From Naegleria gruberi (lineage: Eukaryota): DNA of 64,000 nt. The first letter of the stretch is position 1, and each line of letters opens with the position of its first letter. Shown piece after piece: positions 5,433 to 61,734 of the stretch. Position numbers and translations under genes: made by a program. The DNA is taken from assembly GCA_000004985.1 (NCBI GenBank), contig GG738862.1, one strand, 5' to 3'. The notes under the pieces were generated by a model. The model saw only the letters and a program-made list of their open reading frames with translations, had not been told where the DNA came from and searched no databases.

Positions 5433-5547
5433 ACAACATTTGTTTCAATTATTTAGTTGTAAGTATTGTCGACAGCGCTATCCATTTCCAGAATATTTTA
5501 AATTTCCGTTTTAGGAAGATATTCATCCGAAACCTGTCATAAAAAAA

Positions 5548-6831: not shown

Positions 6832-7186
6832 AAATATTAGTATTCTAATTAAGAAGACTCTTCTGAAGTTGATCACTAATTTAGTTTGATAGATCTTTAA
6901 TTTAACAATCAAATAGTATTTAGTCAACTCAATTACTCTTTAAGAATTTAAAATTCAACTATGAAAATTGAAAGTACATAATCATGATTACAATCCTCGT
7001 AGTTCGTAGTGTAAAACATTTTCAAGACACTTGTCTCTTTTATTCTTCAATTGTAACAACCATTAGCTATATAGAGATAGTTTCCATACCAAGGAAAAAT
7101 GACATGTTGACATTTGGTATCTTTTATAGACATTTGACCACCACATAAGCCAACAATCACGATTGCGATATCTTTCACTAAAAAAA

Positions 7187-8716: not shown

Positions 8717-9045
8717 CTTTTCCATTATTCGACTTTTCACATTATTTCCTTTTTGAGCTCATGGTCAACTGGTTCTTTTATTAACAATTATTCCATTAAG
8801 AGAACAAATTATCAGCAATCACACAATAAGAATGTTACTTTACACAACTTACAATATCCACTAGAATCGGAATTAGAATCTTTTATTTATGCGATTCTTA
8901 TTTGAGCCAGCAAATCATTTTGGAATCTTTCACTTTACGAACTCTATTTTACCTTTTTAGATGTTTTTGGAATGTTAAACTACTATTTTCAATTTGCAAT
9001 ATTGACATCCATGAATCTTTCACACAGTCAATTAAACACAAAAAA

Positions 9046-10527
9046 ATGTCTCTTGACGAAACTGTTCGAAACAATGAAATTAATCTTGTTGAAATGGAGA
9101 ATGTTTTATATTCAATGAAGATTGATACTGAACAACAATTTTATGAATCAACTTCAACTCAACAAGATGCCTTCAATTCTTCATCTAATAATAATAACAA
9201 TATTGATAATACACAGTTGACTAGTAATAATAAACCTTTACAACAAACTAGTAATACAATAGTTAAAATTGAAGAAGGTCAACAAGAATATAACACTAGT
9301 GTAACAATACCACCTAAAATTCCAAAACAAGATCAACAATATATTATAAATACCAAATATGGACAATTACAATTATCATGTGATAGAATAATATCAGTAT
9401 TAATCATGTTATTAGCAATTATTACATTATTTATGATGGCATTTCTATCTGCATGTACTTTAATATTAGAAACTAATACTGAAAATAAAACATTTAATCA
9501 CACAACTCAATTATCAAAGAATTTAATAAGATTAAATACTTATTACAAAATTATTATGGAAAGTGAAATTGTAGAGTTGTTAGTTGAGGAAATTAATGAA
9601 ACAATGATTGATGTTACAAGTGATTATCATCTATTATTAAGAGATGTACCTTATACTGGTAACACTGATAAATATAGTAGGGCAAGTGTAATTACTAGAA
9701 TTGGAGATTATTTTAACATATTGGAAAGTAATCATTTTCATCTTTATAATCAAGTTATTGAAAATAATTATACAGATACTAAATTTTTCTATTCGAATTA
9801 TCATCCAAGCCTAGTCAATTTCACACAAAGTTTAGACCTAGCTCTGATACTTGCTGATAAAGCTGCAAGTAATGAAGACGAATATATGAATTTAAATGCA
9901 ATTATTGATCTTGTATTATCTGTATTTGTATTAATTATTATAATTCCATCAACTGCTATATTACTTATCAAGTCAGCTGTCAATGACAACAAGTTTTTAG
10001 AAAAATTAAAAAAAGCAGATGCAAGAGTAGTGATTGAAACAATTGCAGACATAAGATTACAGAATGAATTTAAAGAATTATGTAAAGAACATAATCAATT
10101 ATCAAAATATCTATTTATGGAAAGAGTTCAATCATTCAATGAAATATGTCAAAGAGTTTTCGCATTACAAGATGAAATTGAAGAAGGAGTTAATCTAGAA
10201 ATGAGTAAGAAAATGTTAATTGAAATCGATCAATTGGAATCTAAAAAATTTGAATTATCATTTGAATTAATTACAGAATATCTTGATTTAGGTAGTGATA
10301 CCTTTTTAGGATATCCTTTAATAGGTGGAAAGAAAGCAGCGGAGAAAATCAAAAAGATATTCGATACTCAATCTGTTCACTTACCTGAAAACTTGTTTAA
10401 AAATGTTCAATCAAATGTTTCTTTGAATTTACTTCCAATTTACAAATTATGTAAATCCAATCAACAACGAAAGAGAAATCAACGAATGAAATTAATGAAG
10501 AAACAACAATTAGCAACGACACAATAA
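9046..10527 (+). CDS. Two-TM receptor-like protein with cytoplasmic RGS-like domain (paralogue of the 7187 gene)
   Basis: About 70% identical to the 7187 gene product over the TM2 and C-terminal domain (FKELCKEHNQLSKYLFMERVQSFNEICQRVFALQDEIEEGVNLEMSKKMLIEID). The start is chosen at aaaaaaATGtctctt by analogy with 7187. The upstream part of ORF 8902.. lacks family similarity. Confidence 0.5.
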   Translation: MSLDETVRNNEINLVEMENVLYSMKIDTEQQFYESTSTQQDAFNSSSNNNNNIDNTQLTSNNKPLQQTSNTIVKIEEGQQEYNTSVTIPPKIPKQDQQYIINTKYGQLQLSCDRIISVLIMLLAIITLFMMAFLSACTLILETNTENKTFNHTTQLSKNLIRLNTYYKIIMESEIVELLVEEINETMIDVTSDYHLLLRDVPYTGNTDKYSRASVITRIGDYFNILESNHFHLYNQVIENNYTDTKFFYSNYHPSLVNFTQSLDLALILADKAASNEDEYMNLNAIIDLVLSVFVLIIIIPSTAILLIKSAVNDNKFLEKLKKADARVVIETIADIRLQNEFKELCKEHNQLSKYLFMERVQSFNEICQRVFALQDEIEEGVNLEMSKKMLIEIDQLESKKFELSFELITEYLDLGSDTFLGYPLIGGKKAAEKIKKIFDTQSVHLPENLFKNVQSNVSLNLLPIYKLCKSNQQRKRNQRMKLMKKQQLATTQ

Positions 10528-14822: not shown

Positions 14823-16585
14823 ATGGAAGTTAAATTTTCATATCCATCAGATGATAATATAAATGTAAAATTTGGAGATAATATATTATTATTAACACCT
14901 AAAAAATTAAATTTTCATTCCCTAATTAGACCTGATCTTTCCATAAATGTAAAATATAGTACTTTACAAAATTATAAAAAATTATATTCATTAAATGAAT
15001 TATATTTAAATCATTTAATGAATATAATAGAAAAAGATGAAATTCAAGAAGAAATTCAAAGTTATTATTGTCCATCATGTTTAACTGAATTTGCTAAAAG
15101 TGAAGCAATGTTTAACAAGATGAAATGTCAATTTTGTTTTTCATGTCCATCATGTCAATGTAATTTAAATTTAGTTACAAGAAATTTACAAACATTTTTA
15201 TCATGTCCATATTGTTATTATGATACTTTGGATATTAATTTAAAAACAAATGATTCATTTAATCAATTATTTGAAATTGTAAAGGAAAATGATAATAGAT
15301 TACAATCAGATTTTAATTTACAATTAAGAAAATATGCTGATCATGTTAAAAAATTAAATTCAAATTCAAATTCAAATCAACAATATAGAAAATTTTCAAT
15401 AGTTTTAGATTCTTATGTAACTGTGACTACTAATAGTAATTCATCATCTAATAATAGTAATAATAATAGAATTGGTAATAGTAATACTTCTAATTATGGA
15501 AATGGAATTGAACCATTAACTCATTCATCAAATGAAAGTTTAGATTCCTATTTAAAAAAAAGTGATCAAAGAGTTCAATACATGACATCAAGTGAATATT
15601 CATATAATAATTTAATATCATTTGAAAGTAAATTACAAAATAATAATAATAATACATTTAATTCTAATAATTCTAATAATAATAATAATGACATTTCAAT
15701 GTTGTATCCACAGAGAAAAACACTTTGTATTAAAAAGATTAAAAAATATGGAGAGGAAATTATTGTTAAAAGAGATTCAAAAAATCATTCAACTAATTTT
15801 GATATTAATTATAATGCAATGTATGTTTTTTAATTTTTTAATTTTAATTTTAATATTTTTAAAGTAAATTTTTACCTAAATTTTCAATACTTAATGTACC
15901 AGTATTAAATGTAAATAGAGAATCAGATATATATTTATTAATTACAAATCCAAATGAGGAATGTAGATTATATTTAAATTTAGAATCATTTGATAATAAT
16001 GTTAAATTAAATTTACCTAAAAAGACAATAGTATTAAAAGAAAATAATGGATTAGAATCATATTCAGCTGATGTTCAACAATTAGGAATTGAAGATGAAA
16101 AATTGAGGGAATTAGATCATGAAATTGAACACATAATTGAAAGGAGAAATAATCAATTAAAAATTAGAATTGGAGTTTTACCATTTGAATCCAATGTTAA
16201 ATTTAAAATAAGAGTTAAATTGAGTGGACTATCTTTGAGTGCTGCATTTTCATCTTCTCCAAATTCTGTTACATCACCTAATAATAATTCAAGTTCTGCT
16301 ATCACTAATTCAAATAGTAATATCAATAACAATAGTAATAATAACTCATCAACAAATGCTACTAATAATAATGGATTGACTGTTTCATCAAGTTTAACAA
16401 ATTCAATGATGGAATCAATAGCACTAAACTCACCCAAAAAGAAGGAAATGTATGAAAAACAAGAAAACAAACAAGTGGAATATCTTGTACATTTTCAACT
16501 TCCAAGTGCTGTTTATACTGAAGATGATTTGAATGAGCACCAAGAAAGTTCTACACCAAAAGTTGACTGGATTAAAGTTTATTGA
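14823..16585 (+). CDS. DCTN4: Dynactin subunit 4 (p62), two exons: 14823..15820 and 15865..16585, separated by a 44-nt intron
   Basis: YYCPSCLTEFAKSEAMFNKMKCQFCFSCPSCQCNLNLVTRN matches the p62 Cys-rich motif (YCPSCLE..AEA..KK.RC..CF.CP.C...L.TRA). The intron GTATGTTTTTTAATTTTTTAATTTTAATTTTAATATTTTTAAAG restores continuity INYNA|IKFLPKFSILNVPVLNVNRESDIYLLITNPNEE, which resembles the human segment [33 protein letters not shown]. Confidence 0.6.
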
Positions 16586-16734: not shown

Positions 16735-19698
16735 TTAGACATTTTCTTGATTAACTCCTCTTCCATTATTATCTGTGTTATTATCACCAGCAATTGGACC
16801 ATCATTGGATAATGTAGTACTATTATTAGTTGTATCATTACCAATTCCATATTGTCTTCTCAATGCATCCAAATCAAAAGGTAAAGTTAATTGAATTTGT
16901 AAATTTGGTCTCTTTGCATTTTCTCTTCTCAATTTTTCTAATTCTTCTTCATCAATAATCCACATTTCATCATCATCATAACGTTGACCAAAACATAATA
17001 AATTTGATTTGATAAAATCTAAAGCCTTCATAAAATTATTACCATATTTTGAATTATTAAAATTATTTAAAAATCTACGTTTAGATTCAACCTGTTCAAC
17101 ACGTGCAGTACCAGTTGTTGTATCAAATGGAAGTGGAATTTCCTTAGTTGCTCTATAATTTTCTATATTTGCAATATTTTCATGTTCAATACGGAAAATA
17201 TTCCAAATAAATCTTCTTAAAATTTCCAAAAATACAAACAAGTATAAAATCCATTCCAATGTTTCCTTTTCAATTTTAACAAATGATTTAACAAATAAAA
17301 ATGGTAACCAAACCCATCTTAGTATAATATTACTAAACATGGCCATATAATAATATTGAGGTGAAAATATTAATTTAGATCTTAATCCCCAATATTTAGT
17401 TTTCTTTTCAAATAAACCCATATCAACACGTAAATCCCAATATAATTTTAAACATGTTGAAATAATATTTATAATAATATATATAATACGTAATATTGTA
17501 AATGATCCAATTAATATATTATTAGAATTATCCAATGTTAATTTATCAATAAATGCAATAATAATGACTAAACATGATGAAAAATATTTTAATGCATTTA
17601 ATAAATGCATTTTTTGTCTAGTATCATAATATTTTCTTAAACATTGCATTAATCTAACATGATATGGAATGTAATTTAAAATTGGAATTCCTAAACTTTT
17701 AGTTGAAGAACAAAATAAAGAAATTGTTGAAAATTTTGAAGTTGCAGGATAAATACAACCAATAAATTGTAATTCAAATAAAACATCAGATAAAGAAGTT
17801 AATTGATCTGCAATAAAAAAGTCAGAAAATCTAACTACTGTAAAAGGAGATGCTAACATTCTTAAAATACATTTTAATAACCAATATCTAAATTCAAAAT
17901 TTAAAATTTTAAAAGGATTAATTAAATATAAAATAAAAATAATCCATAATATAATTGGATGCCAATATGCATATTGTCCTATTAATAGAATATTACTTAA
18001 ATAGGAAATTACATTCATCATGTAAATTAATTGACTTGTAAAAATTATATTTAAAATTAATAATGAAATTGATAAAAATTTCCAAGTTGATAAACACATT
18101 AATGGATTTAATCCTAATATGTAAATATAATTAATATTATATTTACTCCAAATTCTAATATTTATACTTATAAAAAATGTTAATAATGTTGGAAATAATA
18201 ATAATCTATATAAAGAAAAACTTTGATCATCATATTCTATATTTTCCTTATTTGTAAATTCATATGTATAAAAATAATAAAATAAATTTATAATTATTAA
18301 TATAAATAAACTTCCTAATAAAATACCACTTGTAAATATATCTTTTAAATTATTTACTTCTAAAATACCAATATCTCCTATTTTTAATTTACTTAATTGT
18401 TCACTTGCTAATTTTATATCATTTTCACAATAATATTCTGCATAATAATAAATTGTATCTTTAATATGTTTATCAATTAAATTAGAATTTTTAAAATATT
18501 GATATTTTATAAATTTTATATTTTCAAATATTTCTGTAAAATTAATATTTCCATATATAGTATCATAATAATTATTATATTATTATTATTTAGAATTATT
18601 ATTATTATTAGAATTATTATTAAAATTATTATTAATAATAATAGGAGTATTAATTGAATTATTTTTAGAATTATAATTAATTGCATCATTTAATTCATTA
18701 AAAGTAAATTTAATTTTTCTTTTTGTAATTTCATTTAATTTTGTTGTAATATGAATTAAAGCATTATAATTAACTAATCTATAATTAAATAATAAATTTA
18801 AATTATAATAATGTTCTTCAATTCCTTCTTTTAATTTTTGTTTTTGATTAAATGTTAAAATTTCTAATTTTGATGATTTACTATCTTTAGAAATTAATGA
18901 TCTTGCATATTTATTATCATTATACATTTCATTAATTTTATTAATTTGTTCTAATAATCTATTATGTTCATCATTAATAGAAATTTCATTTTCTAAATAA
19001 AAATTATTAATCTTATTAATTTCCTTATATAGTAAATATTTAAAATCTTCAATTAAATTATTATTTATATCATTATTATTATTATTATTTCTTCTATTTG
19101 TTAAATTAATAGATGAAGATATAATATTTTTAATATTAAAATCAGAATGTTTAAATTCATCTTTTAAATCATTTAATTTATCAAGTAAATATTTATAATC
19201 TAAATATTTAACTTGCCATTCTGTTACCATATTTGCATAAAATTGTTGTTGTAATGTTTTTTCATCATATGAAGATGATATTATTATAGATTCAGATGAT
19301 TCACTACTACTACTACTATCATCTGATTCTACACTTTCAATACTATTTCTATTTTCATTATCTTCATTAGATCTCAATAATATATTATTAGTATTATTAT
19401 TGCTGTTATTATTATTATTAATAGATTTAAAAGAGTGATGATGATGATGACGGTGATGATCACCATATTCTATTGGATCATCAATATATTTATGATGATG
19501 ATCTAATAATTCTAATTCATCTTCTTGATTTAATGGAATATCTTCTTCTATACGTTCATCATCATCATTAATTGTTGAGGAATGTATCATCATCATTGGT
19601 GGAGGAGGTGTTGAAAAACTTCCTACCCCACTACCAATGGGTGATGAAAATGATGACAAGTTTGGTGGAGTCTTGTTAATTATACTTGTTCTTCTCAT
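16735..19698 (-). CDS. SPX-EXS family protein (XPR1/SYG1/PHO1-like phosphate exporter homologue). It has a His-run N-terminal extension. There is at least one intron, with acceptor ttttacag at about 18535.
   Basis: EXS signatures are VVRFSDFFIADQLTS and RRFIWNIFRIEHENIANIENYRATKEIPLPFD. The SPX start-like segment is FYANMVTEWQVKYLDYKYLLDKL (compare PEWRKQYINYEEMK). The frame is open on the minus strand from 16735 to about 18534 without an ATG. The upstream exon 18586..19698 ends in a stop, so the exact splice is unresolved. Confidence 0.55.
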
Positions 19699-25353: not shown

Positions 25354-27918
25354 ATGTCATTACACGATGATCAATTATCCTCCTCTATTACAACTCCCCA
25401 ACAAGATGATGATATTAATAATAAAGATATTGTTGATGAATTGAATAAATATGATATTAATAATAATAATATATTTGGTTATAATAAACAAATAAATAAA
25501 AAACAAATTATATATGGATGTGGTGATGGATTTTGGAAGAAACAAACCGATATAATATCAATTACTAAATTAACAAATTTTGATAAAATAGATTATTTAC
25601 AAAATTATATATTAAATGATAAAATAATTAAATTTAAATGTAAAGATCAATTATGTATATTTCTTACTAGTAATGGAAATGTATATAAAATGGGACAATG
25701 TACATTTATAAATAATTGTACAAATATTCCAACATTAATTAATAATTTTAAAAATGATAAAATTATTGATTTTTCNNNNNNNNNNNNNNNNNNNNNNNNN
25801 NNNNNNNNNNNNNNNNNNNNNNNNNNNNNNNNNNNNNNNNNNNNNNNNNNNNNNNNNNNNNNNNNNNNNNNNNNNNNNNNNNNNNNNNNNNNNNNNNNNN
25901 NNNNNNNNNNNNNNNNNNNNNNNNNNNNNNNNNNNNNNNNNNNNNNNNNNNNNNNNNNNNNNNNNNNNNNNNNNNNNNNNNNNNNNNNNNNNNNNNNNNN
26001 NNNNNNNNNNNNNNNNNNNNNNNNNNCTTTTATAGAATATAAAAAAAATGGTAAATATCAAGTTGACTATTTTTATACTTTAAATTTTACAAATATTACT
26101 AAAATAGTAAAAGAATGTAATAAAAATAAAAATATATTTATTAATAATAATAAAATACAAGATATTAAAGATATTCAATGTAATGGTATTAATACTATAA
26201 TTATTTATAATGATAATACAAATATATTATCTCCTTTATTTAATGATTATTATAATCCAATTAAAAATGAAATTATTTTAAATAAAGTTTATAATAATTT
26301 TATTTTTGAAAATGTATATCAAAAATTAATTTTAAATGAATATCAAATTTTATATTTAAATAATAATAATGAATGTAAATTTATTGATTATAATGGTAAT
26401 TTATTTAAAATGGATAATATTATAAATATGGAAAGTGGTACATTTCATAGTTTTTTACAAACTATTGATAATAAATTTTATTCATTTGGATCTAATGAAT
26501 TTGGTGAATTAGGATATAATAAGAAATTTAATGAATTAAAACAAGTTGAATTACCATTTACTATTAAGGAAGGTGATAATGTTCAAATTTGTTGTGGTAA
26601 AAATTTTACTATTTTAATACATGAAACAGATAATGATGAAATATTTAAAATTAATAATTTAATTGTAACTGATAATTTTAATTTTAATTATGAAATTAAT
26701 TCAAATTTTTATTTAAATTTAAATTTATTAAAAAATATTTCCAATGATTTTTATAATTTAATTACAAATAATAATATAATTGAATATTTAAATGAAAATG
26801 ATCAAAAAGCATTATATTATTTAATTAAAAATGCATTAATTAATTTAAATAATTTAACTAATTTAGATGAATTATTTATTAATTATGATAAATTTATAAA
26901 ATTAATTTCCTTTAATGAAATTGAATTAAATTTAGTAACATGTCTATTTATATTAAATGATATAAATGATATTAATAATGAAATTAAATTATTATTATTT
27001 AATGATCTATCAAATAGAATTAATATTGATAATATTATGAATATTTTACAAAAAGTTAATAATTATCTTTCTTTAAATATTTTAAAACAATCTAAAAATA
27101 GTATTTTATTATTATTAGCAAATAAATGTTTAGCATTTATTAAAGAAAATGAAAAATTATTAAAATCAGAAAAATTATTTGAAATTATTAAAGATAAATT
27201 ATTAAATATTAAAAAATCATTTAAACAAATTATTTATAAAATTGATAATATTACTACTATAAATGGAATTGATAATAATATTAAAAATATAAATGAATCA
27301 TTAAAATTATTATATAATAATAATGAAAATAATGATATTAAAATTATAATTGATGAAAATTCAAATGAAATATTATATTTACATAAAAGTATATTATCTA
27401 TTCATAGTCCAGTTTTAAATATTTTATTTAAAAATTTAAATATTAATGAAATTAATTTATATGAATTTATTGAAATGATGATATCAGATGAATGGATAAT
27501 TAATTTATTTAAATATTCAAATAAAATTAATGAAATATTAAAAATAATATTTAAATTATGTTATGGATATAAATTAAATAATTTAAATTTAAATAATTTA
27601 ATTGGTATTTTAATTATTTCACAACAATTAGATATTACATGGTTAATTAAATATACATGTAATTTAATTATTGAAAAATTTAATGAAATTAATGATACTG
27701 AATTTATTTTATTACTAAATTTAGTATCAATTTCACAAAATAATAATAATTGTAAAGAATTTGTTGAATATTTTAAAATATTTTGTTCAAATAATTTATC
27801 ATTTGATTATTTACAAAAAATACAATCAGTTTGTAAAGATAATCAATCATGTGATAATTTTATTAAAATTATTATTGATTATTATTTAAGAGTACATACT
27901 ATAAATAGAAAATATTAA
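25354..27918 (+). CDS. RCC1-repeat plus BTB/POZ-domain protein (RCBTB-like), extremely AT-rich. The CDS is interrupted by an assembly gap.
   Basis: YSFGSNEFGELGYNKK and GCGDGFW are RCC1-blade-like. ILYLHKSILSIHSPVLNILFKN is the BTB core. The N run inside the ORF is read as X. Confidence 0.4.
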   Translation: MSLHDDQLSSSITTPQQDDDINNKDIVDELNKYDINNNNIFGYNKQINKKQIIYGCGDGFWKKQTDIISITKLTNFDKIDYLQNYILNDKIIKFKCKDQLCIFLTSNGNVYKMGQCTFINNCTNIPTLINNFKNDKIIDFXXXXXXXXXXXXXXXXXXXXXXXXXXXXXXXXXXXXXXXXXXXXXXXXXXXXXXXXXXXXXXXXXXXXXXXXXXXXXXXXXXXXXFIEYKKNGKYQVDYFYTLNFTNITKIVKECNKNKNIFINNNKIQDIKDIQCNGINTIIIYNDNTNILSPLFNDYYNPIKNEIILNKVYNNFIFENVYQKLILNEYQILYLNNNNECKFIDYNGNLFKMDNIINMESGTFHSFLQTIDNKFYSFGSNEFGELGYNKKFNELKQVELPFTIKEGDNVQICCGKNFTILIHETDNDEIFKINNLIVTDNFNFNYEINSNFYLNLNLLKNISNDFYNLITNNNIIEYLNENDQKALYYLIKNALINLNNLTNLDELFINYDKFIKLISFNEIELNLVTCLFILNDINDINNEIKLLLFNDLSNRINIDNIMNILQKVNNYLSLNILKQSKNSILLLLANKCLAFIKENEKLLKSEKLFEIIKDKLLNIKKSFKQIIYKIDNITTINGIDNNIKNINESLKLLYNNNENNDIKIIIDENSNEILYLHKSILSIHSPVLNILFKNLNINEINLYEFIEMMISDEWIINLFKYSNKINEILKIIFKLCYGYKLNNLNLNNLIGILIISQQLDITWLIKYTCNLIIEKFNEINDTEFILLLNLVSISQNNNNCKEFVEYFKIFCSNNLSFDYLQKIQSVCKDNQSCDNFIKIIIDYYLRVHTINRKY
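25777..26026. other. Assembly gap (run of about 250 N) inside the RCC1/BTB gene
   Basis: Contiguous n characters. The frame continuity across the gap is an artefact of the placeholder length. Confidence 0.95.
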
Positions 27919-37164: not shown

Positions 37165-40087
37165 TTACTTTTTAAGTGTTGTTGTTGTTAGCTTGATCCA
37201 TTGATCTTTTCTACTCTTCTCAATATCTGATTGATATTTTGATTTCTCTTTAAAGAATTGCTCAATAGAGTTAACACTCTTTCCAAATGAATCTTGAATT
37301 TGAACGCCTTTTCTTATCCACTTTGAGAGTTTGTTTGTTAATCTCGATTGGTGATATCTCTTATCTAATAAAAGAACAGTTGCATAATCCTTACTATGTC
37401 TAATTGCTCTTCCAATTGATTGATTAACTCCATTCATACAAAGATTGTCTAAATATTCTCCCTTACTGACTTTGGTGGTTTTTTCAAAAAAGTTCTGTTG
37501 TTCTACCAATTCAGGATCGGTAGTATTTGGATAAGGCATTCCAACGACAATTATCAATCGACCATATCCATCTGAAAAGTTAATTCCCTCTGAAAGTTTA
37601 CCTCCCACAACACAACTCAAAACACTTCCATTATATCTCTGTAGACTACCACCACTACCACTGCTACTGCTACTGATGCTACTGATGCTGTTGTTGTTGT
37701 TTGTTGGAAGATACAGAATTTCCAAAATTATGATCAATAATCTTCTTATATTCCTGTAAGATTTTTTCCAATGATGAGTTGGGTTCCTCATTGGTGCTTG
37801 CCTCTCTCAAGAATTTCTTTTTCTTTTCTATTTGGCCAATTATACCATTATTCTTCCAGTATTCGAATACTGTCTTCTCATATTGGTAGCTAGGGAAGAA
37901 CAGTACAACACCATCAGGAACAATATTACACAAGTTCACTATCATTTTACCCAAACTTTTTGTTAGGGCATCATTCTTTTGTCTGTTTTTAAAGGTGAAA
38001 TCTAATACAATATCGTCGACACCTTTGGAAAGGGCGATCGGTAAGAAATGATTTTGGGGAACAATGTGCTTATCACATTGATAAATGTGAATTTTGGAAG
38101 ATTCTGTTTTGGGAAATACTTGTTGTATTAATTGTTGTATTGGTTCCATAGTTCCTCCAGTTAAAATTACTGATCTAGCTTCTTTTAAAATAGATTGAAA
38201 GTATACACTAGGATTAAGGAGAAGGAATTTAATCTTTTGTTGTGGTCGAACAAAAACTCTTCCATCCTTATCAACATTCATTAAGGCCAACAGTAGTGAG
38301 ACAAAATTATTTACAGCAATATTACTTGTTGCTGGTGTGATAATTTTAGATACATCTATTGAGGGTTTTGTTGCATTGTATTGTACATAGTTTGCAGAGT
38401 AATTGTTTCTCTTCACTGTCTTGTTATTGTGAATGGTAACAGTTTGATTATTAGAGTCTTGTCTTTCCATGAACATGTTCAACTTTTTAGTTAAATCTGA
38501 CTTTTCTATAAATTCTGCAATATCAAATAAATTAATATTATCTAATTTAGTCTCAAAAACGAGATCAGTAATGGAAACAATAAATCCACCAATATCATTA
38601 GAACCAGTTCCTTCATCTGCAATAATATTAAGAGTAGATGGTTTCTTTACAGTATTAAGATAGGTTATCATATTGTTAATAATTGTTAATAGTCTGTTAA
38701 TATTTGTTTGATTGGTACTTGAAAGTCTATTCTTGAATTTAGTATAATAACTATTAAGTGTCTCATTAACTAAATAAAGTTGAGTAATGTCCAATTCGAC
38801 AGAATGCATTTGATGGATAGCATTAATCAAATTGTGAGCTTCATCAATAATTACAACACAATCCTTCAATGTTGAGATACCAAGTGATTTTCTAGTTTGT
38901 TCATGAATAAGTGAATTGTAAGGCATGCAAATTAACTCTGATATAGGAAGTGCCTTTCTTGTTCCAAAATAAGAACAAATTTTCAATCTCTTTCCCAAAT
39001 CCAATAAATCCTCAATATCATGTACCTTAACAGTCATGTGATCTTTAAATAGTGAGGGATCATTATCATAAGAACATGCCTTTTTATCTCTCAAATATTG
39101 ACATTTCTCATTGATTGCATTGAGAGAATTTTGAATATTTCCATTCTTTGTTTTTCTATAGAGCACATCTTCGTTATTACATAAAACTTGTCTCGAGGCA
39201 ATATTAGAAACTCTAACCTTCTTTGAAAATTCAGTCTTTCTCAATTCCTGAACAAATTGATTCAATTGAGAATGTGTTCTACTGCAATATATAATTTTAG
39301 GTGTTTCAAAATTATCCTCCTCAACTGCTTTCTTTTGACCATAACTTGTGGAAAAGATTGGTCTTTCATCATCACTATCATCTTCATCATATAAATCCTT
39401 TAATAATTCATTATTAATTCCAATCTTATCTAGAACATCCACTTCATTCAATAATAAATCATCATCACTCTCCTTTAGAATGGTATCTGCAAGAAATTGT
39501 TGTCTCCTCTCATCATACTTTTGAACATTCTTCTTACTCTTTTCCAATCGTTCCTTTCTTTCCAATTCTTCTTCATCCTTTTGTCTTTTTAATGTTTGTT
39601 CAGTGACCCATGAAGGTTCTTCATCATCATTATCACTATTCAATTTTCTCTTTAAACAAGTTGAGTTTACATAATGATGTTGATGTTGATCATTATTTTC
39701 ATTACTAATTCCATCTCTTTCTGCATAATGAGCATAGAGCCATGACAAGGCTCCACAAATTAAACTCAATGATTTACCACTTCCTGTTGGAGATTCGAAT
39801 ATTCCTACCTTGCCACTTTGGATAGTATCAAATAATTGTTCCATATATTGTTGTTGGATATCATATGGTTTTTCATAGGGAAAGGAAAAGTTTCTTTTTG
39901 GTTTGTTGGTGGAGTTTATTGTGGAGGATGAGGTTGATGGTGGATTTTTACTTGTCACATTATGTGATGATGATTGTTGCTGTTGTGAGGGAAAGGTTTT
40001 TCGTGTTGTGGTGGACATTTTTTTTAATGGTGAAAAAAACGATATATTTTGGCGGGAACGTTTTATTCTTCTCTTGAATGGAAGCAA
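37165..40087 (-). CDS. DDX11: DDX11/ChlR1 (Chl1) family DNA helicase, Rad3/XPD superfamily. Exons are 37715..40087 and 37165..37638, with a 76-nt intron.
   Basis: [49 protein letters not shown] compares with human DDX11 [48 protein letters not shown]. The DEAH box is [10 protein letters not shown]. The C-terminus [14 protein letters not shown]...GMPYP...[24 protein letters not shown] matches. The intron GTATCT...CTACAG lies inside a Ser-codon repeat. Confidence 0.8.
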
Positions 40088-41485: not shown

Positions 41486-44400
41486 ATGGAAACAAACGAT
41501 ACAACCCAAGAGGAAGTAGAATATATTGATGAGGCACAATTAAAAAAGAAAAGGAAATCATTAAAGCCCAAAACAAAATCAAGACCAACAAGTGAAGAAT
41601 ATGTTGAATACAAACGTTCCCTTACGGATAGACATTCATCACCAAATGTACATTACTATCCGCCACCACCTCACATGCAATACTATCCGCCACCTCCTCA
41701 ACATGTCTCTTATGGTGGTTATCCACCTCACTACTCAAATCCACCACCAGTCAATTATCAATATAACAATGCAGTACCTCAACCAGCATCAACATATTCA
41801 TCAGATGGTGACTACAGCTACGATCAAAACAATGGAAAATTTTATTTCAAACCAAGAAGAGAAACCTTGAATTGGAGAGTTTTACTTTCTTTAAACTTGG
41901 AGAAAATTATGGATAAAGTTGATATTGACACTTTGGAAAGTATTACAAAGAATTTAACCTTTGCGAGAGTTGACTTTAATGATTTACGATATTTCAATGA
42001 AACGAATTTTGTTCAAGTATTCAGACTATCTCAATTAATAATTGAGTATTTGCTGTACGTTCAGAACTATTTATCGGTGAAGAAGTAAGTATTTAATAGA
42101 CAGAATCACCTAACAATACAAAGAAAAGAAGTAGAGTCAAATGTAAAAACAATTATAGGTGACTCGGAAGAATATAAATCTAATCTGGCCAAAAAAACAG
42201 AGGAGATTAACTATTTGAAAAAAGAGCTAAAGAGAAAAAAGAAAGCATTATATGCTTATGAATGCGTATTTGGTGCTAATCCTGAAAAGGCAAAAATATT
42301 ATTAATGTCACAAAACCAACCACAACCTCAACCTCAGCAAGTTGTTGTGACATCAAGCTCAAGATCTGATAAAGAAGAAACATTTGGAGAATTGAGAGGT
42401 GAAATTAGAAGGCTTCAAGAAAATCTTTTTTCTCAACTTGAAGATACCATAGAGAAGAAACAAAAATTATTGGAAAAAGAAAATCAAAAGAGATTAGATC
42501 AATTCCAGAAAGAATTTGAAAAATTCACGGACAGCTGTAAATATCAACAGGATAATCTCTATTCAGCATTGAGTAAATCAATATCTAAGTACTCAGAAGA
42601 AGGTAGCAATGGATCAGGAAACTCTCCGGATGACTTTATGAAATTTTCTTCACATCTCCAAAACTTGATACAGCAAAATAACCAATTATTGATGAGCTCA
42701 TTTGACAGGAAGATGAATGATTTATCAGCTTCAGCCAAGCAAACAACTCAGGTAGATAACAGTGCCGAACTGAACGAAATGAGAAGGAAGTTAGATGATA
42801 TAATGAGAAATGTTAACAAAAAACCAGAGCCAATAGTTGAGACTGTTGTTCGAAAAGTTGTGAAGAAAGAACCTCCAAAAGAAGAAATTGTTACTGTAGT
42901 TAAGGCTAAGCCAAAAGAGCCTCCAAAACCTGAACCTAAACCAGAACCAAAAGTTGATCCTCCAAGACCAAAGACCCCTGTTGTTGTAAAACCAAAACCT
43001 GAACCAGAGCCAGTAGTAGAACGACCAAAAACTCCAGTGATGGCTAGACCTAAACCAGTGGAAAAACCAGTTCAACGAGTTGAAACTCCTCCAAGAGTTA
43101 AAACACCACCTCCACCTAAGCCACAAACACCAGAACAAGAAAGTTTTATTTCTGAAACAACAACTGATAGCTCAGATTACTCTTCAACAGACACAAGCAT
43201 GACTTCGGATAATTCAAATCTAGGATTACGAGAACGTATCTACAAAGAATTGAAATTAGGAAAGATTTTTGATGAGCTTGATGAATCAATTGCATATCAA
43301 CACTATGAAGATAAACCTTGGTTGAAAGCAAAGTACAAGCAAAATCCAAAATTTGTCAAAGTGCAAAACTCTGAAACAGACCAAGTATTTGATCACGAGA
43401 TGAGAACATTGGGGGTGGATCCTAGCCAATCAGGAATAACTGAGAATGAGTATTTGAGAGGTTTACAGGTACTCCAAAAATCCAGAGGAAATACTGTAAA
43501 TAACAACCCGGATCACCTGGTCATTATGAACGCATTAAGAGAACAAGTTGACAAGATTGCTTTGGATAGATTAAATGGTGATTCCCAGCAAGGTAATAGA
43601 GTTTCTTTCTCCCATGATCCTACACTCAACGATTTTATTAACAAATTACAAAAAATTAATGACTATGATGCTATTAGGAGAGTAAACCCAACAGAAAATC
43701 AACAAGAATCTCCAAGACGAAGAAAGAGCAATGCTGAATCACCGAGAAGAAGAATAAGTAATGCTGAATCGCCCAGACGAAAGTTTAGCAATGCAGACGA
43801 GGACCCAGCCAATGATATTCCAAAAGTTAAAATCCCTGAAAAACCAGAACCAAAGATGAAAGCTATTACAATTGCCCTTGAGGCTCAAGCTAAAAAAATG
43901 GAAATGGATGCAAAGAAAACCGTAAAGAATCCAGAAGACAATCAACCCCGAGTTGAAACTAAGAAACCATCAGAGCAAATGAATACTCTCAAATCAACAA
44001 TGAATGATACAAAACAATCAAACACATTACAATCCACTTTGAAGAGCGACAGAAGCTTGAATAACACCAAAATTATTGAGGCAGAATTTGATGATGTGAC
44101 TGCTGATGAGCATGATGAGGGATCTACTATGTATGAGGTTGTTGGTGCTCAGGGAGGAAACGGAGGAGGCGGAGGTGAAGAAAGTGAATATTCGACTGAG
44201 TATGAAACTGAAACCGAAGATATAGAACCTCCAAGACAAGTTGCTCAATCTGTTTCAAAGCCAACCAATCAAGTCGTAGAAGAGGAAGATAATGACCACG
44301 ATGATGATTATGAGGAAATAGAGGAGGAAGAAGAGGAAGTACCAAAACCTAGTAGTCAGAATCTCATTCAAACTTTCGTTGCTCCTGAGTCAGATGAAGA

Positions 44401-44848
44401 AATTCCACCAAAACAAAATGTAAATACTAAGAGTGAATCCAATGTAAAGAAACAAATGGAATTGGAATCAGAAAGCGAAGAAGAACATGCTGTTGTAAGG
44501 GTTGTGAGCAAAGTCTCGAAGGTTAAAATTGAAAGTAGTGATGATAGCGATGAAGAGTTAAGTAGAGGTGGAAACCTTTCGAACCAAGCTTTGGGAAATA
44601 AGTTCAAGAGCTTGAACAATATGTGGGATGGAATGAATAATAAGAAACGACCAAGTAAGCTTGACAATATTAATAGAAACAATGACAGTAGCATTGATTT
44701 GCCAGGTTCTGATGACTTTGACATTTCAGCATTTAAGCAAAATCTTACTCCAAACTCAAGACCAGGAACTGCCTACTCGAGTGACATTTCTGGATTCATA
44801 AAGACTCTAAAGCATGATGACGATGATCTTGATACTGAAGAGTTGTAA
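41486..44848 (+). CDS. Dzip1-like N-domain protein (ciliary/basal-body zinc-finger protein DZIP1/Iguana-like) with a long coiled-coil, Pro/Glu-rich C-terminal region. The two same-frame ORFs 41486..42088 and 42089..44848 are probably joined by a 39-nt intron at 42085..42123.
   Basis: FYFKPRRETLNWRVLLSLNLEKIMDKVDIDTLESITKNLTFARVDF...VFRLSQLIIEYLLYVQNYL matches the Dzip-like N pattern F.F.PRRE..WR...D...TL...N.TF...LAQLIIEYLLH.Q. The single in-frame TAA sits inside aa|GTAAGT...acaaAG. Both ORFs share frame, and the downstream frame is open back to the stop. Confidence 0.4.
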
Positions 44849-46181: not shown

Positions 46182-46247
46182 GGTTGAATTCTAATGCTAA
46201 TAACCTTTCTCAATTCCAACACATCAATCCCAACACAAAAACAAAAA

Positions 46248-48026
46248 ATGTCTTCATCTAATACACCAACACATGTTGCTGCCATTGATTTTGGTACCAG
46301 CAACACCGCAGTTGCCTACGCAAAAACACCAACAACTTCAAACTCTCATTTTGACATTGTACTATTCCAGTTAGATAAGAACAAGCCCAAAACCAAAACT
46401 ATTGTTGCTTTAGATGTAATGAAACCTAAAGGACAACAATGTGTTGCCTTTGGTGATCAAGTTAAGAAGAAATTCGAGGATGAAGAATCCTTCCATTCAG
46501 ATGTATTAGTGTTCGAACATTTTAAAATGCTTCTTCATAACAACTCAAGTGGAAATGAGAGAGATGATGTATGCATTGCTCATAACGGTAAAACAAAACC
46601 ACTCACTCAAGTGATTGGAGAAACATTGAAATATCTAGTAGATCGGACTGTGGAAGAAATTTCCAGTAAAAGCATCAAAACAGTACAAAAGAAAGATATT
46701 ATGTGGGTTTTAACTGTACCAGCAATCTGGACATGGAAAGCTAAGAGTATAATGAGGAATGCCATGAGAGAATATGGCCAAATAGAAGAAAAATTTATCA
46801 TTGAAGCACTTGAACCTGAATGTGCTTCAATTACTTTGTGGCAAGAAAATCCTGAAATTGCCAATCAAAGTAAAACTGCAATGATTGTGGATATTGGGGG
46901 AGGAACAGTTGACATTAGTGTACATAAATTGAATACAAAAGAAAAAAGATTAGAGAGTAAATTAGAAGCAAGAGGAGGAGCTTGGGGTGGACGAAACATT
47001 GACCGATCTCTATTCGAATTTATGCAAGAAGTTTTGAAGTTTGATTTTACTTCATATAAATTTAAAGAAAATGGTGACTATTTCGATTTAACAGCAAATA
47101 TAGAAGACTTGAAAGTTTGTTTTGCTAAAGACTTTGATCCAAGAGACTACAAAGACAAGAATGGTAATCTTTCACTCAATCATGACCAAATCAAATATTC
47201 TATTGTAAAAAGAATTGAAGAATACAAGGAAAGAACCAAAACCAAACAAGTTGATTCTCTTCAGAGAAAGTATGGAATCAAAATTTCATTTCAAATACTT
47301 TTCAGCTTTTATATGAAAATTTTACAAAATATTACTTCTACTATCAATGAAATCATAACACAATTATCAAAGAATAATATAGCAATTGACTATATTTATC
47401 TAGCTGGAGGTATGGCAGAGGCAAAAGTAGTTGTCGATGAAATTAAGAATTCTAGTAAGAATAAGCAAGTAGCAGTTGTTACAAATCCTCAGACTGCAAT
47501 TGTAAGAGGTGCTGTCTATTATGGACTCAATCAAAATATTATCAAAACAAGAGTTTCTACATTTACTTACGGGTTATCTGTGAATGCACCATTCAATCCT
47601 GCTATTCATGATACATCGAGAAAAATTATTAATTTTAATAAGGAAGTTATGTGCAAAGATTGCTTTTTAGAAATAGTTAAAATAGGTGAGGAAATTGACA
47701 CGAATCAAATCAAATCATTAAGTGCTCCTCCAACAACAGTTGATCAAACTGTAATTAATTTTAATATTTTACAAACAAAGAAAAGTAATCCTAAATATGC
47801 AGATGAAAAAGATGTTGAAATATTAGCCTCAATTAGTATTGATATTTCGGATTGTTTGCATTTACCAATTGAAAAGAGGACTGTCACTGTTAACTTTATG
47901 TTTGGAGCTACAATTATTTATGTGAATGCAATTAATGAAGCTACTGGAAAACAAGAGAATGTCTATATTTCATTTGATTGTAAGTTAATCTCTTTCTTAG
48001 AATTTAATAGAAGAAATCTTCACTAG
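46248..48026 (+). CDS. Atypical Hsp70-family ATPase (HSPA12-like, actin-like ATPase fold)
   Basis: VAAIDFGTSNTAVAYA (phosphate-1; compare HSPA12 AIDFGTTSSGYA). MIVDIGGGTVDISV (phosphate-2). LAGGMAEAKVVVDEI (adenosine motif). The start is placed at the ATG after an A-run (46248), and an alternative in-frame ATG lies at 46194. Confidence 0.65.
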   Translation: MSSSNTPTHVAAIDFGTSNTAVAYAKTPTTSNSHFDIVLFQLDKNKPKTKTIVALDVMKPKGQQCVAFGDQVKKKFEDEESFHSDVLVFEHFKMLLHNNSSGNERDDVCIAHNGKTKPLTQVIGETLKYLVDRTVEEISSKSIKTVQKKDIMWVLTVPAIWTWKAKSIMRNAMREYGQIEEKFIIEALEPECASITLWQENPEIANQSKTAMIVDIGGGTVDISVHKLNTKEKRLESKLEARGGAWGGRNIDRSLFEFMQEVLKFDFTSYKFKENGDYFDLTANIEDLKVCFAKDFDPRDYKDKNGNLSLNHDQIKYSIVKRIEEYKERTKTKQVDSLQRKYGIKISFQILFSFYMKILQNITSTINEIITQLSKNNIAIDYIYLAGGMAEAKVVVDEIKNSSKNKQVAVVTNPQTAIVRGAVYYGLNQNIIKTRVSTFTYGLSVNAPFNPAIHDTSRKIINFNKEVMCKDCFLEIVKIGEEIDTNQIKSLSAPPTTVDQTVINFNILQTKKSNPKYADEKDVEILASISIDISDCLHLPIEKRTVTVNFMFGATIIYVNAINEATGKQENVYISFDCKLISFLEFNRRNLH

Positions 48027-48214: not shown

Positions 48215-49455
48215 GTGAAAGACAATGAAAGTGAAAAATTTGAAGATGAAGTTAAAACGTATGATACTGTTTATAATGGTATTATTAGAGATTATAAACC
48301 AAAGGATTTCTTTAGGGCCCTCTTTAGAATTAAGGATATTCCACAAAAATACCTATCAAGTTATTCTGAATTAGCAAAATATTTGACTGAACCTTTCACA
48401 AATGTGGAAGACAAAGCAAAAGTTATCTATGCATGGATCACCCATAATATTGCCTATGATGTTTATTCAGCAAGAACCAATTCATATCACAATGATCCAA
48501 TCAAAACATTTAAAGAAAGAAAGGGTGTATGTGGAGGATATGCTGCCTTATTTCAAGCAATGATGTTTCAATGTGATGTTCCTTCAACAGTTAAAATTAA
48601 TGGTAGATCTAAATCAGTAGATGGAAATGTAGGATCTCATGCATGGAGTGCTGTTCAATTAGAAAATGGTCAATACTTTCTATTAGATTGTACTTGGGGA
48701 GCTGGATTTACTTCATCAGGTATATTCGAAAGACATTTTAATCCAAACTACTTCTTTGTCAATCCAAAAACTCTAATATCTACTCACTTACCTGACAATG
48801 ATAAATGGCAATTTTTAGAAAAAACAGTAACTCCAGATGAGTATTATGAACTACCTGTAATTACTCAACATGGTATTAATAATGGATTGACTATTATTTC
48901 AAACAAGAAAAAGAGTATTCTTTTACAAGATACAAACAGAGGAATTTTGGTTCTTCAAGCCAATCCAAACTTGAATTGGGATGCTGATTTAAAAGATTTG
49001 AGTGGAAATTCAATTGCAGACAAAACTTTTGTCTGTATGAATCCAGTACTGCCAATATTCATTACATTATTCCACAAGCTGATAAGGCCTACCGTCTATA
49101 TCTGTATTTGGATAAGATGTGCGTCACATCATATGAGATTAAAACAAGGAAGGTAACGATTAATGATGTCTTTGTTACTAAATATAAGGGAATGGAAGAT
49201 GCACGAGTTGGAATTCTCCATCCATTACAAAAGAGATTAGATTCTGATAAGGAATGGACATTTGTGTTAAAAAATCCTCAAGGAAGAGATTTATATTTTA
49301 GTTATGATGGGCAGTACATTCCACTTGTAAAAGTGGGAGAATTTCAAGTAATGAAAACAAGAATTCCACCAAATGCCAAACAAATCAGTATTTGTTTTAT
49401 GGAAGGAGAATATTGGGTAACCATCTGTCGTTATGATGTTCAATTAGTAATATAG
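48215..49455 (+). CDS. Transglutaminase-like cysteine-peptidase-fold protein (kyphoscoliosis peptidase KY-like). Two ORFs (48215..49156 and 49108..49455) are linked by a frame change near 49030-49090.
   Basis: RKGVCGGYAALFQAMMFQCDVPSTVKINGRSKS...GSHAWSAVQLENGQYFLLDCTWGAG forms the Cys-His-Asp transglutaminase-like core. Frame 1 is open from 48988 and reads protein-like sequence (IIPQADKAYRLYLYLDKMCVTSYEIK). A candidate 56-nt intron runs 49031..49086 (GTCTGT...AAG). Confidence 0.5.
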
Positions 49456-57463: not shown

Positions 57464-59278
57464 ATGTTCAATAACAACACTTCTCGATCTTTTGTATATA
57501 ATAACAATAATCAGGACTTACTATTCGGTGGTGGTGGAAATAATCAAGTATCATCATATTTGAATAGGAATGAACCTACAAGAGAGTCATTGAATAACAG
57601 TATTATGAAATCTAATTCCAATAATAATAGTATGCTTGGTGGTGGTAATAATTTGAGACAATCACTGGGAGGAAATAATAATTATTTATCAATGTTCCAT
57701 GATGATGATGATGAAGATGTATTTGATACAGCAGGTATTAACTCTCAACCTATGATGAGTAATAATTCCTTCTTAAATTCGGGACAACATAATGTTTTAA
57801 ATAATACAATGAATAATAATAACAATTTGGATAATAGTAAATTAAATAATAGTAGATTTACTCATCAGACATCTAATTTTAATAACACTAGCAAATCCTC
57901 AATGTATGGTGGTGGCCTACCATCTTCTCAACCTTTTGCTAATACATCCTTCAAATCTTATTCAATGAACAAACCTACTGGTATCTTTTTATCAAATAGA
58001 GAACAATTACCTCAATGTATGGAATATATCAACAATAAGATTAGTAACACTATGGCTTTATTGCCTTTAATGTCATTTTATAGTGAGGCTAATGCTATGA
58101 ATTCATTTAGATTGGATTTTAATAACTCTGATAATGATATTTTTGTTGTGAATGTACTTTATTACCTTTTAAAGGAAAGAGAAGATGATTCAGCTTCAAA
58201 AGTTACATTACAAGACAAAGTTAAAAGATTACAATGTGATCAAAGTGCTCTTCAGTTGAATAATAACAAATTGGAACAAAAAATTGTTGAACTACAAAAA
58301 CTTTACAACCTCGAACAACAAAAACATACAACACTTCAAAAGGAATCAAGAATGAAATTGAAAAAATTGGAAACAGCAAAAACAGCTTTGGAATCTCAAA
58401 ATAAGAATATTCAACAAAAGTGTGATCAATATGAACACAATCTGATAAAAATGGAAAAGGAAATGGATAAATTAAAGCAACAAATGACACACAAATTGAA
58501 TATGCTTCTCAATATGAATTTATATGGAAGTAATTTAAATTCAAGCAAAGTAGATGTAATTAATCAAACAAATCATCCTGCAATTTCATCACCAGCCATA
58601 ACACTTTCACCACATCATAACAAATCTTTTGCTTGGAAACATGGTTTGGAAAGAAATGAAGATATTCTCTATCAAAATGTAGTTGAAGCATTTAAAGATG
58701 AAAAACAAGAAATTCTTGCAGAGAATCAACAACTCAAGAGGTCATTAAAACAATTGAATGGAGAGTTGAATAATTTGAGACAACAGTACTCAATAACAGC
58801 ACCTCTATTTGATAGTCTTAAAGATGGGCAATTCGAGTTACCATACCATCTTGCCCAAGAAGAAATTGAATCAGCCATTAGAGATAAGATTCAAGATATA
58901 AGTAATATTATGGGAAAGTCTTCGCATTTAGGAGGTGGAGGAGGCATGCACAGTTTAGATGCTGATGTTGATGATATTGACTTGACTGATCCTGTTTCTG
59001 TTAAAATAGCATTAGACTCATTGAGGAATCAGTGCAATGAATATAGGAGACAATTAAATTCGAGACTAGAACATTACCCCTTCCAACACACATTTTCAAC
59101 AGCATCATTGGGTCAAAATAGGAGTGAATCATCGCCGACCTTCCCAACCAACATTCCAAGATTACACACTGATGACCAAAATCTTGAACAATTAATGTTA
59201 GACACTAATGAAATTCCACTCGATGAAGATGTGGCAGTTTCTGCACATAGTATAACTACAAACTATAATTTCCTCTAG
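57464..59278 (+). CDS. Hypothetical N-rich coiled-coil protein
   Basis: The central section 58200-58500 encodes heptad-like KLEQKIVELQKLYNLEQQK... The family was not recognised. Confidence 0.3.
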   Translation: MFNNNTSRSFVYNNNNQDLLFGGGGNNQVSSYLNRNEPTRESLNNSIMKSNSNNNSMLGGGNNLRQSLGGNNNYLSMFHDDDDEDVFDTAGINSQPMMSNNSFLNSGQHNVLNNTMNNNNNLDNSKLNNSRFTHQTSNFNNTSKSSMYGGGLPSSQPFANTSFKSYSMNKPTGIFLSNREQLPQCMEYINNKISNTMALLPLMSFYSEANAMNSFRLDFNNSDNDIFVVNVLYYLLKEREDDSASKVTLQDKVKRLQCDQSALQLNNNKLEQKIVELQKLYNLEQQKHTTLQKESRMKLKKLETAKTALESQNKNIQQKCDQYEHNLIKMEKEMDKLKQQMTHKLNMLLNMNLYGSNLNSSKVDVINQTNHPAISSPAITLSPHHNKSFAWKHGLERNEDILYQNVVEAFKDEKQEILAENQQLKRSLKQLNGELNNLRQQYSITAPLFDSLKDGQFELPYHLAQEEIESAIRDKIQDISNIMGKSSHLGGGGGMHSLDADVDDIDLTDPVSVKIALDSLRNQCNEYRRQLNSRLEHYPFQHTFSTASLGQNRSESSPTFPTNIPRLHTDDQNLEQLMLDTNEIPLDEDVAVSAHSITTNYNFL

Positions 59279-60610: not shown

Positions 60611-60735
60611 TTTTTTTAAAAAGGCTTTTCACCACTAAAATCAAAGCCTTGTTTTTAGCATGCTTCTCTTTGGAAAGCCTTTATTCAATCAATTTATGAA
60701 GGCTGTTTGGTTGTTGAGGTTTGAAATTGAAAAAA

Positions 60736-61734
60736 TGCCACCATCGGATTCTGCAGTTTTTAAATTTAATTTCATGGTTAATGATAATGATAGTGATGAT
60801 GATGATGACGAGAATAATTCATCGGAAGAGAGTAAATTTGCTCCAACCATTGAAAAGAATGAAGAAATGAAGGATAATGTAGAATTGGAACCATTTAAAA
60901 TCATTAATTACAAAGATTTAAATACAAGAAAACAATATAATGAACATGTTCATACTTGGAAACATTTAAAATTTATTAATGTTACATCAATTATTTCAAA
61001 TCATGTTTCTCAACAATTAAATACAGATTTAGTTAAATATAAGTATGAAGGTGGATTTAAATTATGGGAATGTTCGGAAGATTTAGTTGAATTTATGACA
61101 AGTAATTTGAATTTTGTTGAAGAAAATGTAAAGAATAAGAATATATTAGAATTAGGATGTGGTCATTCTTTACCTTCTATTCATTGTTTATTATATTGTA
61201 ATGCAAATATTTGTGCTTTTCAAGATTATGTATGTTTTTTAATATTATTCCATATTGTAATATTAATATTAATAATATTAATAGAATCATGATGTTATTG
61301 AAAATTTAACAATACCTAATATTATAGTAAATTTGAATGATGAAAAACTTTTAGATAAAACAATGGAAAGATGTGAATTTTATTCTGGTGATTGGGGTTT
61401 CATGTCTGAACAACAATTGAACAAATTTGATTTAATTTTAATGAGTGATACTATTTATCATGTTGATTCCTATGATAGATTATATAGAGCTATTAAATCA
61501 TCTTTAAAGAAGGGTGGAAAAGTGTATGTTTTTTATTGTAATATTAATAATTTATTGTAATGATATAGATTGTGTGGAGCTAAATCATATTATTTTGGAT
61601 GTGGTGGAAGTACTAAACAATTTAAGGAATTTATTCAACAAAAAGAAGGTTCCAATGTAAAGATTGAAACTGTTAAGGATATTATGGATGGAACTTCAAA
61701 TGTTCGTGAAATTTTACTTTTTACTTTCAATTAA
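60736..61734 (+). CDS. METTL18: METTL18/Hpm1-like protein-histidine methyltransferase with three exons: 60736..61229, 61285..61537 and 61580..61734. The introns are 55 nt and 42 nt.
   Basis: FKFNFMVND (compare FQFNF). YEGGFKLWECSEDLVEF (compare YEGGLKIWECTFDLLAYF). Motif I ILELGCGHSLPS. Splicing gives FQDY|NHDVIENLTIPNIIVNL (compare FQDYN..VIE..TLPNVVAN), FYSGDWGF and FDLILMSDTIY (compare YDLILTSETIY). The third exon gives KSYYFGCGGSTKQFKEF (compare AHYFGVGGGVHLFQKF). Intron 1 is GTATGT...AATAG and intron 2 is GTAATA...GGAG. Confidence 0.6.

Follow-up and report, generated by a model that had tools for sequence, protein, structure and literature searches.

A 39-nt phase-2 intron very probably accounts for the in-frame stop codon in a DZIP1-family gene of Naegleria gruberi that is annotated as two genes

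DZIP1, DZIP1L and Iguana are animal proteins of the basal body and the transition zone that function in ciliogenesis. Naegleria is the classic amoeboflagellate. Tiny introns are known from Paramecium (about 25 nt), Stentor (15 nt) and the nucleomorph of Bigelowiella (18-21 nt). For Naegleria, Herman et al. 2021 (PMC8296547) give a mean intron length of 203 bp and 1.7 exons per gene in N. gruberi; for read mapping in N. fowleri, they set the minimum intron length to 30 bp, "based on an assessment of predicted genes". The intron that we describe here in a DZIP1-family gene of N. gruberi is, at 39 nt, far below the published mean for this species. None of the papers in the library searched joins Naegleria with DZIP1 or with the accessions discussed below.

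The window analyzed here, a 64-kb stretch (64,000 nt) of N. gruberi nuclear DNA, is AT-rich (about 30% GC) and gene-dense, and its ORFs, read with the standard genetic code, are long. The ATG at position 41486 of the window starts an ORF of 200 codons, the last residues of which, ...LSQLIIEYLLYVQNYLSVKK, are followed by a TAA triplet. This stop codon sits within gaagaa|GTAAGTATTTAATAG, where a GTAAGT donor runs from 42085 on, with 42084 as the last base of the putative exon 1 and the intron in phase 2. Past the TAA, the frame of the first ORF (41486-42088) runs on for 919 codons, beginning at 42089, before it meets its next stop at 44846-44848. The preliminary description of this locus, made from the letters alone, had placed the stop inside a splice consensus, with potential acceptors at 42099 and 42123 and another donor, GTACGT, at 42055, and all these elements were found at those positions. 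The same description gave the downstream ORF as 880 aa in the same frame; the frame holds, and the length is only approximate, the ORF caller reporting 877 aa from TTG 42215. A gene neighboring the DZIP1 gene encodes a Memo protein; neither this protein nor NAEGRDRAFT_79385 (see below) had an exact entry in an index of contigs.

Table 1 Proposed structure of the DZIP1-family gene of N. gruberi (positions in the 64-kb window), rejected splice sites and corresponding introns in related loci
Feature	Position	Strand	Description
Exon 1	41486..42084	+	Start ATG to second base of Lys codon 200; corresponds to EFC45583.1
Intron GTAAGTATTTAATAGACAGAATCACCTAACAATACAAAG	42085..42123	+	39 nt, U2-type spliceosomal, phase 2
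In-frame TAA	42086..42088	+	Intron positions +2 to +4 of the GTAAGT donor
Candidate branch-point motif CTAAC	42110..42114	+	Branch A at 42113, 10 nt 5' of the 3' splice site
Exon 2	42124..44848	+	Includes the TAA stop at 44846-44848
Dzip-like_N (PF13815)	41840..42232	+	Residues 119-236 of the spliced protein; spans the intron
C-terminal DZIP1 block, LGLRERIYKEL to REQVDKIALDRL	approx. 43220..43573	+	Bounds estimated; precomputed PF25977 match
Rejected acceptor, 15-nt intron	42098..42099	+	
Rejected donor GTACGT, 45-nt option	42055..42060	+	
Intron of L002 (near-identical strain, metagenome)			39 nt, identical to that of N. gruberi
Intron of L005			40 nt; frame shift if retained
Intron of L001 (N. 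lovaniensis)			45 nt
Intron of L004			48 nt; three in-frame stops

The first ORF encodes the beginning of a Dzip-like_N domain (PF13815). The Pfam match (E=5.6e-23) covers only positions 1-79 of the 118 positions of the profile, so the stop codon cuts the domain. Pairing GT with AG sites in every frame-compatible combination yielded introns of 15 nt and 39 nt, with in-phase acceptors at 42099 and 42123, respectively, and a 45-nt option that combines the GTACGT donor at 42055 with the acceptor at 42099; apart from these, there were only options of 69 nt (42055-42123), 150 nt and 180 nt. Exon 1 alone scores 81.5 bits against PF13815, above the gathering cutoff of 27.9 bits, as does the product from which the 39 nt between 42085 and 42123 are removed, with 103.4 bits and a gapless alignment to 118 of the 118 profile positions. 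This is the highest score of the four products compared; the other three reach 95.0 bits (45-nt intron), 90.9 bits (15-nt intron) and 88.0 bits (readthrough, the lowest). The Dzip1-like identity originally proposed for the locus holds.

We conclude that the region 41486-44848 is very probably a single DZIP1-family gene with a 39-nt phase-2 intron of the U2 type at 42085-42123. This two-exon gene would encode a protein of 1107 aa. Splicing would join AA|A as a Lys codon and restore the complete Dzip-like_N domain; translation of an unspliced transcript would end after residue 200 and would probably be unproductive. The intron starts with GTAAGT at 42085 and ends with AG at 42122-42123, as part of an AAAG acceptor. 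The CTAAC motif conforms to the canonical YTRAY/CTAAC consensus and is, as read from the sequence, a putative branch site. Exon 2 completes Dzip-like_N with its C-terminal third and further encodes a coiled-coil region, a linker rich in Pro and Lys, the putative C-terminal DZIP1 domain and an acidic tail. The N-terminal layout, in which an acidic region is followed by a K/R-rich and then by a P/Y-rich one, is present also in the L004 and L005 relatives.

In the public databases, the locus has a different form. GenBank and RefSeq have two models here, NAEGRDRAFT_66420 with 200 aa and NAEGRDRAFT_79385 with 847 aa, the second of them truncated at the 5' end. The former (EFC45583.1), named 'predicted protein', is identical residue for residue to the upstream 200-aa ORF. 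The latter is the N. gruberi protein matched by the spliced product, with 100% identity from MSQNQPQ (Met 42305) on, and its UniRef name is 'Cilium assembly protein DZIP1 domain-containing protein'. EFC45583.1 and EFC45584.1 are adjacent N. gruberi models on the same 502-kb contig, each 100% identical. A search for the merged product of 1107 aa in a protein collection of 15 billion sequences found no entry.

The annotation amounts to two genes, one encoding a 200-aa protein that ends at the TAA and the other starting separately, from Met 42305 or from TTG 42215. Prokaryote-style gene callers likewise end at the TAA on the related contigs. Such a two-gene scenario had been considered at the outset and agrees with the public models, yet it is contradicted by the domain that spans the junction and by the single-gene orthologues, and we regard it as extremely unlikely. 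Under this scenario, Dzip-like_N would be severed at position 79 of 118, the other 39 positions being encoded just after the intron and upstream of the annotated Met, and the stretch 42124-42304 is conserved in the Naegleria relatives as a coding region. In the homologues, among them those from Percolomonas and Nk52, one polypeptide contains the N domain and the coiled-coil stretch, which follow each other uninterrupted, and the Nk52 polypeptide includes the C-terminal DZIP1 domain too.

The sole new point that emerges from this analysis is that one DZIP1 gene is wrongly listed as two in the public annotation; otherwise, the intron is an ordinary one. The corrected model fuses NAEGRDRAFT_66420 with NAEGRDRAFT_79385 and regains the 60 residues that precede the annotated Met. 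Since both annotated fragments lack a complete Dzip-like_N domain, the gene may be overlooked or wrongly scored in comparative surveys of ciliary and basal-body genes. It is plausible that the gene predictors missed the intron on account of its shortness, 39 nt. As this case suggests, the N. gruberi annotation may miss introns of about 40 nt more widely, and other split genes may exist.

Comparison with homologous proteins separates the splice options from one another. Only the product with the 39 nt removed aligns without gaps with the proteins of N. lovaniensis and Percolomonas (the latter derived from a transcriptome), with Nk52 from EukProt, with a protein from ENA and with Echinococcus DZIP1; relative to these homologues, the 15-nt product contains a private insertion of 8 residues and the readthrough product one of 13 residues. 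Use of another intron, either the 15-nt GTAAGTATTTAATAG, which would be Stentor-like, or the 45-nt GTACGT(42055)...AG(42099), has in our estimate a next to negligible probability. Both options are in-phase introns of the GT..AG type, and introns of 15 nt do exist in the ciliate Stentor, but both score below the 39-nt option against the Pfam profile. The 15-nt intron would add the residues QNHLTIQR, which occur in no homologue, would be without room for a branch site, and has no counterpart in the relatives, none of which has AG at intron positions 14-15. The 45-nt option would remove YVQNYLSVKK, much of which is conserved; the alignment shows the loss of the YVQNYL motif of which the preliminary description had warned.

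The 39-nt intron also has orthologues. In four related Naegleria-type contigs, an intron interrupts the same Lys codon after its second base, with lengths of 39, 40, 45 and 48 nt (Table 1). All orthologous introns have the form GTAAGT...AAG, and the TAA in the donor is common to all five loci. The intron site is thus conserved, and across the four orthologous loci the length varies, with one length that is not a multiple of three, and the interior is poorly conserved. The spliced relatives are collinear around the junction, ...YLS(V/T/S)KKK(E/D)(V/I)E(S/A)NVKT..., and the NCBI model of N. lovaniensis, C9374_014319, is the exact product with the 45-nt intron spliced out. At the DNA level, both exons are highly conserved between N. 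gruberi and N. lovaniensis; conservation collapses, with indels, between GTAAGT and AAG and picks up again at AAG|AAAAGAA. The choice of the 39-nt intron, made originally from the letters alone, accordingly agrees with the best Pfam score, with the gapless alignment to homologues and with the orthologous introns at the same codon position. The DZIP1 gene of the relatives contains another intron as well, with lengths of 47 and 51 nt.

Domain scoring combined with the comparison of orthologues shows, at the level of sequence, that the boundaries of the intron lie at 42085 and 42123, and splicing in vivo would take place at 42084|42124. Exact and degenerate scans of the metagenome collection with the spliced-junction DNA produced no match, and protein searches yielded no junction-spanning protein at N. 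gruberi-level identity; the matches to the junction-spanning protein query were all N-terminal fragments encoded on genomic contigs, and it was these contigs that provided the orthologous introns.

The same comparison bears on the possibility that the TAA is read through or results from a sequencing or assembly error, in which case the protein would have 1120 aa, including the 13 codons at 42086-42124. The frame is open on either side of a single TAA, and the 12 intervening codons are free of stops. Nevertheless, the 13-residue segment is private to this product and occurs in no homologue, the product has the lowest Pfam score, and the segment is conserved neither in sequence nor in length. 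Readthrough cannot be a general mechanism because the 40-nt copy in L005 shifts the frame and the copy in L004 contains three stops. An identical TAA in an independent metagenome contig speaks against a sequencing error. The probability that either readthrough or an error is the explanation is, in our assessment, practically nil.

That a stop codon is found within the splice consensus follows from the phase of the intron: in phase 2, the intron G completes the last codon, and the next triplet of GTAAGT is TAA. Any phase-2 GTAAGT intron reads NNG-TAA, and the stop is embedded in the consensus without a separate meaning. The two exons look like one interrupted frame because the length of the intron, 39 nt, is a multiple of three; the chance of such a length is about 1 in 3.

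A regulatory switch based on intron retention would give the stop a role. In amoebae, the retained intron would yield a 200-aa N-terminal fragment or a target of nonsense-mediated decay (NMD), and during differentiation to flagellates, splicing would turn on full-length DZIP1. If true, amoebae would have DZIP1 switched off up to the start of de novo basal-body assembly. We consider such a switch very unlikely. The stop at intron positions +2 to +4 is kept in all five loci, which is circumstantial evidence in its favor, but the GTAAGT consensus alone accounts for the conserved TAA. Similarly, three of the four distinct intron lengths are multiples of three, but this excess is not significant (roughly 1 in 9 by a binomial estimate). 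Intron retention has been reported for N. gruberi transcriptomes as a whole (PMC6142364), and RNA-seq data for this species exist (PRJEB23822, cited in PMC6142364).

Other parts of the window also contain short introns or candidates for such. A frame-joining scan returned further short candidates of 44, 47, 49 and 55 nt. The 55-nt intron (61230-61284) is supported by a methyltransferase domain that continues over its junction, and in the pyruvate phosphate dikinase gene, removal of a 153-nt intron gives a spliced product that equals EFC45580.1 exactly. When the exact products of the seven other candidate introns were looked up, only that of the 153-nt intron was matched and the 44-55-nt candidates had no match; the sub-50-nt candidates, with exact products absent from the protein collection, are located at 15821-15864, 47980-48026 and 2903-2951. 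Compared with the other Naegleria introns examined, the 39-nt intron falls inside the range of 39-55 nt. Thus, an intron of 39 nt is short for the genus, near the lower limit, but is not exceptional.

Turning to the encoded protein, PF25977 (DZIP1) is a precomputed database match for NAEGRDRAFT_79385 (P0001), for P0002 and for the downstream ORF of L004, and the conservation of the C-terminal DZIP1 block with N. lovaniensis is visible in the alignment. Once spliced, the protein follows the plan of DZIP1, DZIP1L and Iguana, with a full Dzip-like_N, then a stretch that looks helical or like a coiled coil, and then the block assigned to PF25977. The core QLIIEYLL is invariant among Naegleria, Echinococcus, Nk52 and Percolomonas. 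Two features that set the Naegleria protein apart from the DZIP1/Iguana family are its long Pro/Lys-rich linker and its acidic tail. There is also no Pfam match to zf-C2H2 in the Naegleria product. After the N domain, Nk52, Echinococcus and P0005 have the pattern C-x2-C...H-x3-H, whereas Naegleria and Percolomonas have ...AYECVFGANPEKAKILL... in this place. Because Dzip-like_N and the block assigned to PF25977 are both present, the missing zinc finger points to a lineage-specific loss and not to exclusion from the family. The finger is missing in Percolomonas too, and its absence therefore appears to be a heterolobosean trait. Judging from the aligned proteins, heterolobosean DZIP1 appears to be a zinc-finger-less variant of the family.

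By homology with the animal proteins, the predicted role of the N. gruberi protein is most likely in the basal body or the transition zone during the differentiation of Naegleria into flagellates. The preliminary description had taken the gene to imply a cilium or basal body in the organism. This is true, the organism being N. gruberi, but uninformative because Naegleria is a known amoeboflagellate.

Among introns, the closest counterparts are the short U2-type introns of compact protist genomes, with which the 39-nt intron shares the GTAAGT donor, the AG acceptor, a CTAAC-like motif at a distance of about 10 nt, and phase 2. With respect to the tiny-intron systems, the 15-nt GTAAGT...TAG candidate is superficially alike but is rejected by the comparative data, and, unlike in those systems, the introns of Naegleria are not uniformly tiny. 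An intron with a length that is a multiple of three and with an in-frame stop, such as the one described here, fits the avoidance of stop-free introns of such lengths that has been described for short introns.

The DZIP1 locus differs among the Naegleria genomes in its intron content and at its 5' end. In N. lovaniensis (L001, contig PYSW02000088.1) and in a related Naegleria-type contig (L004), the gene harbors a second intron, inserted at the ENQKK / LDYFQ boundary, which corresponds to positions 42493 and 42494 of the window. The N. gruberi DZIP1 gene contains no intron at this site, so that the second intron was either lost or gained within the genus.

The 5' portion of the N. lovaniensis gene (L001 1870-5546) is incomplete. 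Only the final ~31 codons of exon 1 are present on the contig, and the initial ~169 are missing; instead, an opposite-strand ORF of 1180 aa is found, for which no family was detected in Pfam and which may represent a mobile element or a rearrangement. The NCBI model of N. lovaniensis DZIP1 spans this loss by means of an artificial 3-nt first exon followed by a 98-nt 'intron'. In L004 and in another contig with the DZIP1 locus, L005, the gene neighborhood, including the adjacent Memo gene, is arranged as in N. gruberi.

In an alignment of the DZIP1 proteins, those of other lineages carry a C2H2 zinc finger after the N domain, whereas the heterolobosean proteins (Naegleria and Percolomonas) lack it and share at this position the motif AY(E/Q)(C/L)VFGANPE(K/R)AKILL (window 42245-42304).

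Several other genes in the window contain, or may contain, short introns.

Features in the DZIP1 loci of Naegleria relatives and in the N. gruberi window
Feature	Sequence	Position	Strand	Details
Second DZIP1 intron	L001	5965-6011		47 nt, N. lovaniensis
Second DZIP1 intron	L004	5195-5245		51 nt
Tandem paralogous ORFs	window	4146-10527	+	4146-5432, 5548-6831, 7163-8716, 8902-10527
EXS-domain ORF	window	16735-18099	-	same strand as SPX-domain ORF
SPX-domain ORF	window	18586-19698	-
DEAD_2 / Helicase_C_2 (XPD/RTEL-type) helicase	window	37165-40087	-	overlapping ORFs 37679-40087 and 37165-37791
Hsp70/actin-like ATPase ORF	window	46194-48026	+
Transglutaminase-core ORF	window	48215-49156	+	downstream of Hsp70/actin-like ATPase ORF
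ORF with ADIP domain (PF11559)	window	57464-59278	+	E=1.7e-13
Class I methyltransferase gene	window	60660-61557	+	55-nt intron 61230-61284, GTATGT...AATAG

The Methyltransf_16 domain of the methyltransferase runs across the intron junction. The spliced product has no exact match in the public collection, so the annotated model of this gene may also depart from the spliced one. A 47-nt candidate intron, GTAAGT...CACTAG (47980-48026), could join the Hsp70/actin-like ATPase and transglutaminase-core ORFs; the public collection contains no entry for the fused product. The division of the helicase domains between two overlapping ORFs implies a further short intron near 37700-37790. The SPX and EXS ORFs, ~490 nt apart (an intron or a gap), look like the halves of a single phosphate-transporter gene of the XPR1/PHO1 type.

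The four tandem paralogues, with pairwise identities of 27-67%, show no match in Pfam at E<=1e-5 and constitute a lineage-specific gene family. The long ORF 25354-27918 encompasses an assembly gap, a run of 251 Ns (25776-26026), which accounts for the apparent 12% GC dip at this place in the composition profile.

The ADIP-domain ORF is possibly a second basal-body-related gene in this window: the domain is that of the SSX2IP/ADIP family, and SSX2IP/ADIP is in animals a centriolar-satellite and ciliogenesis protein.
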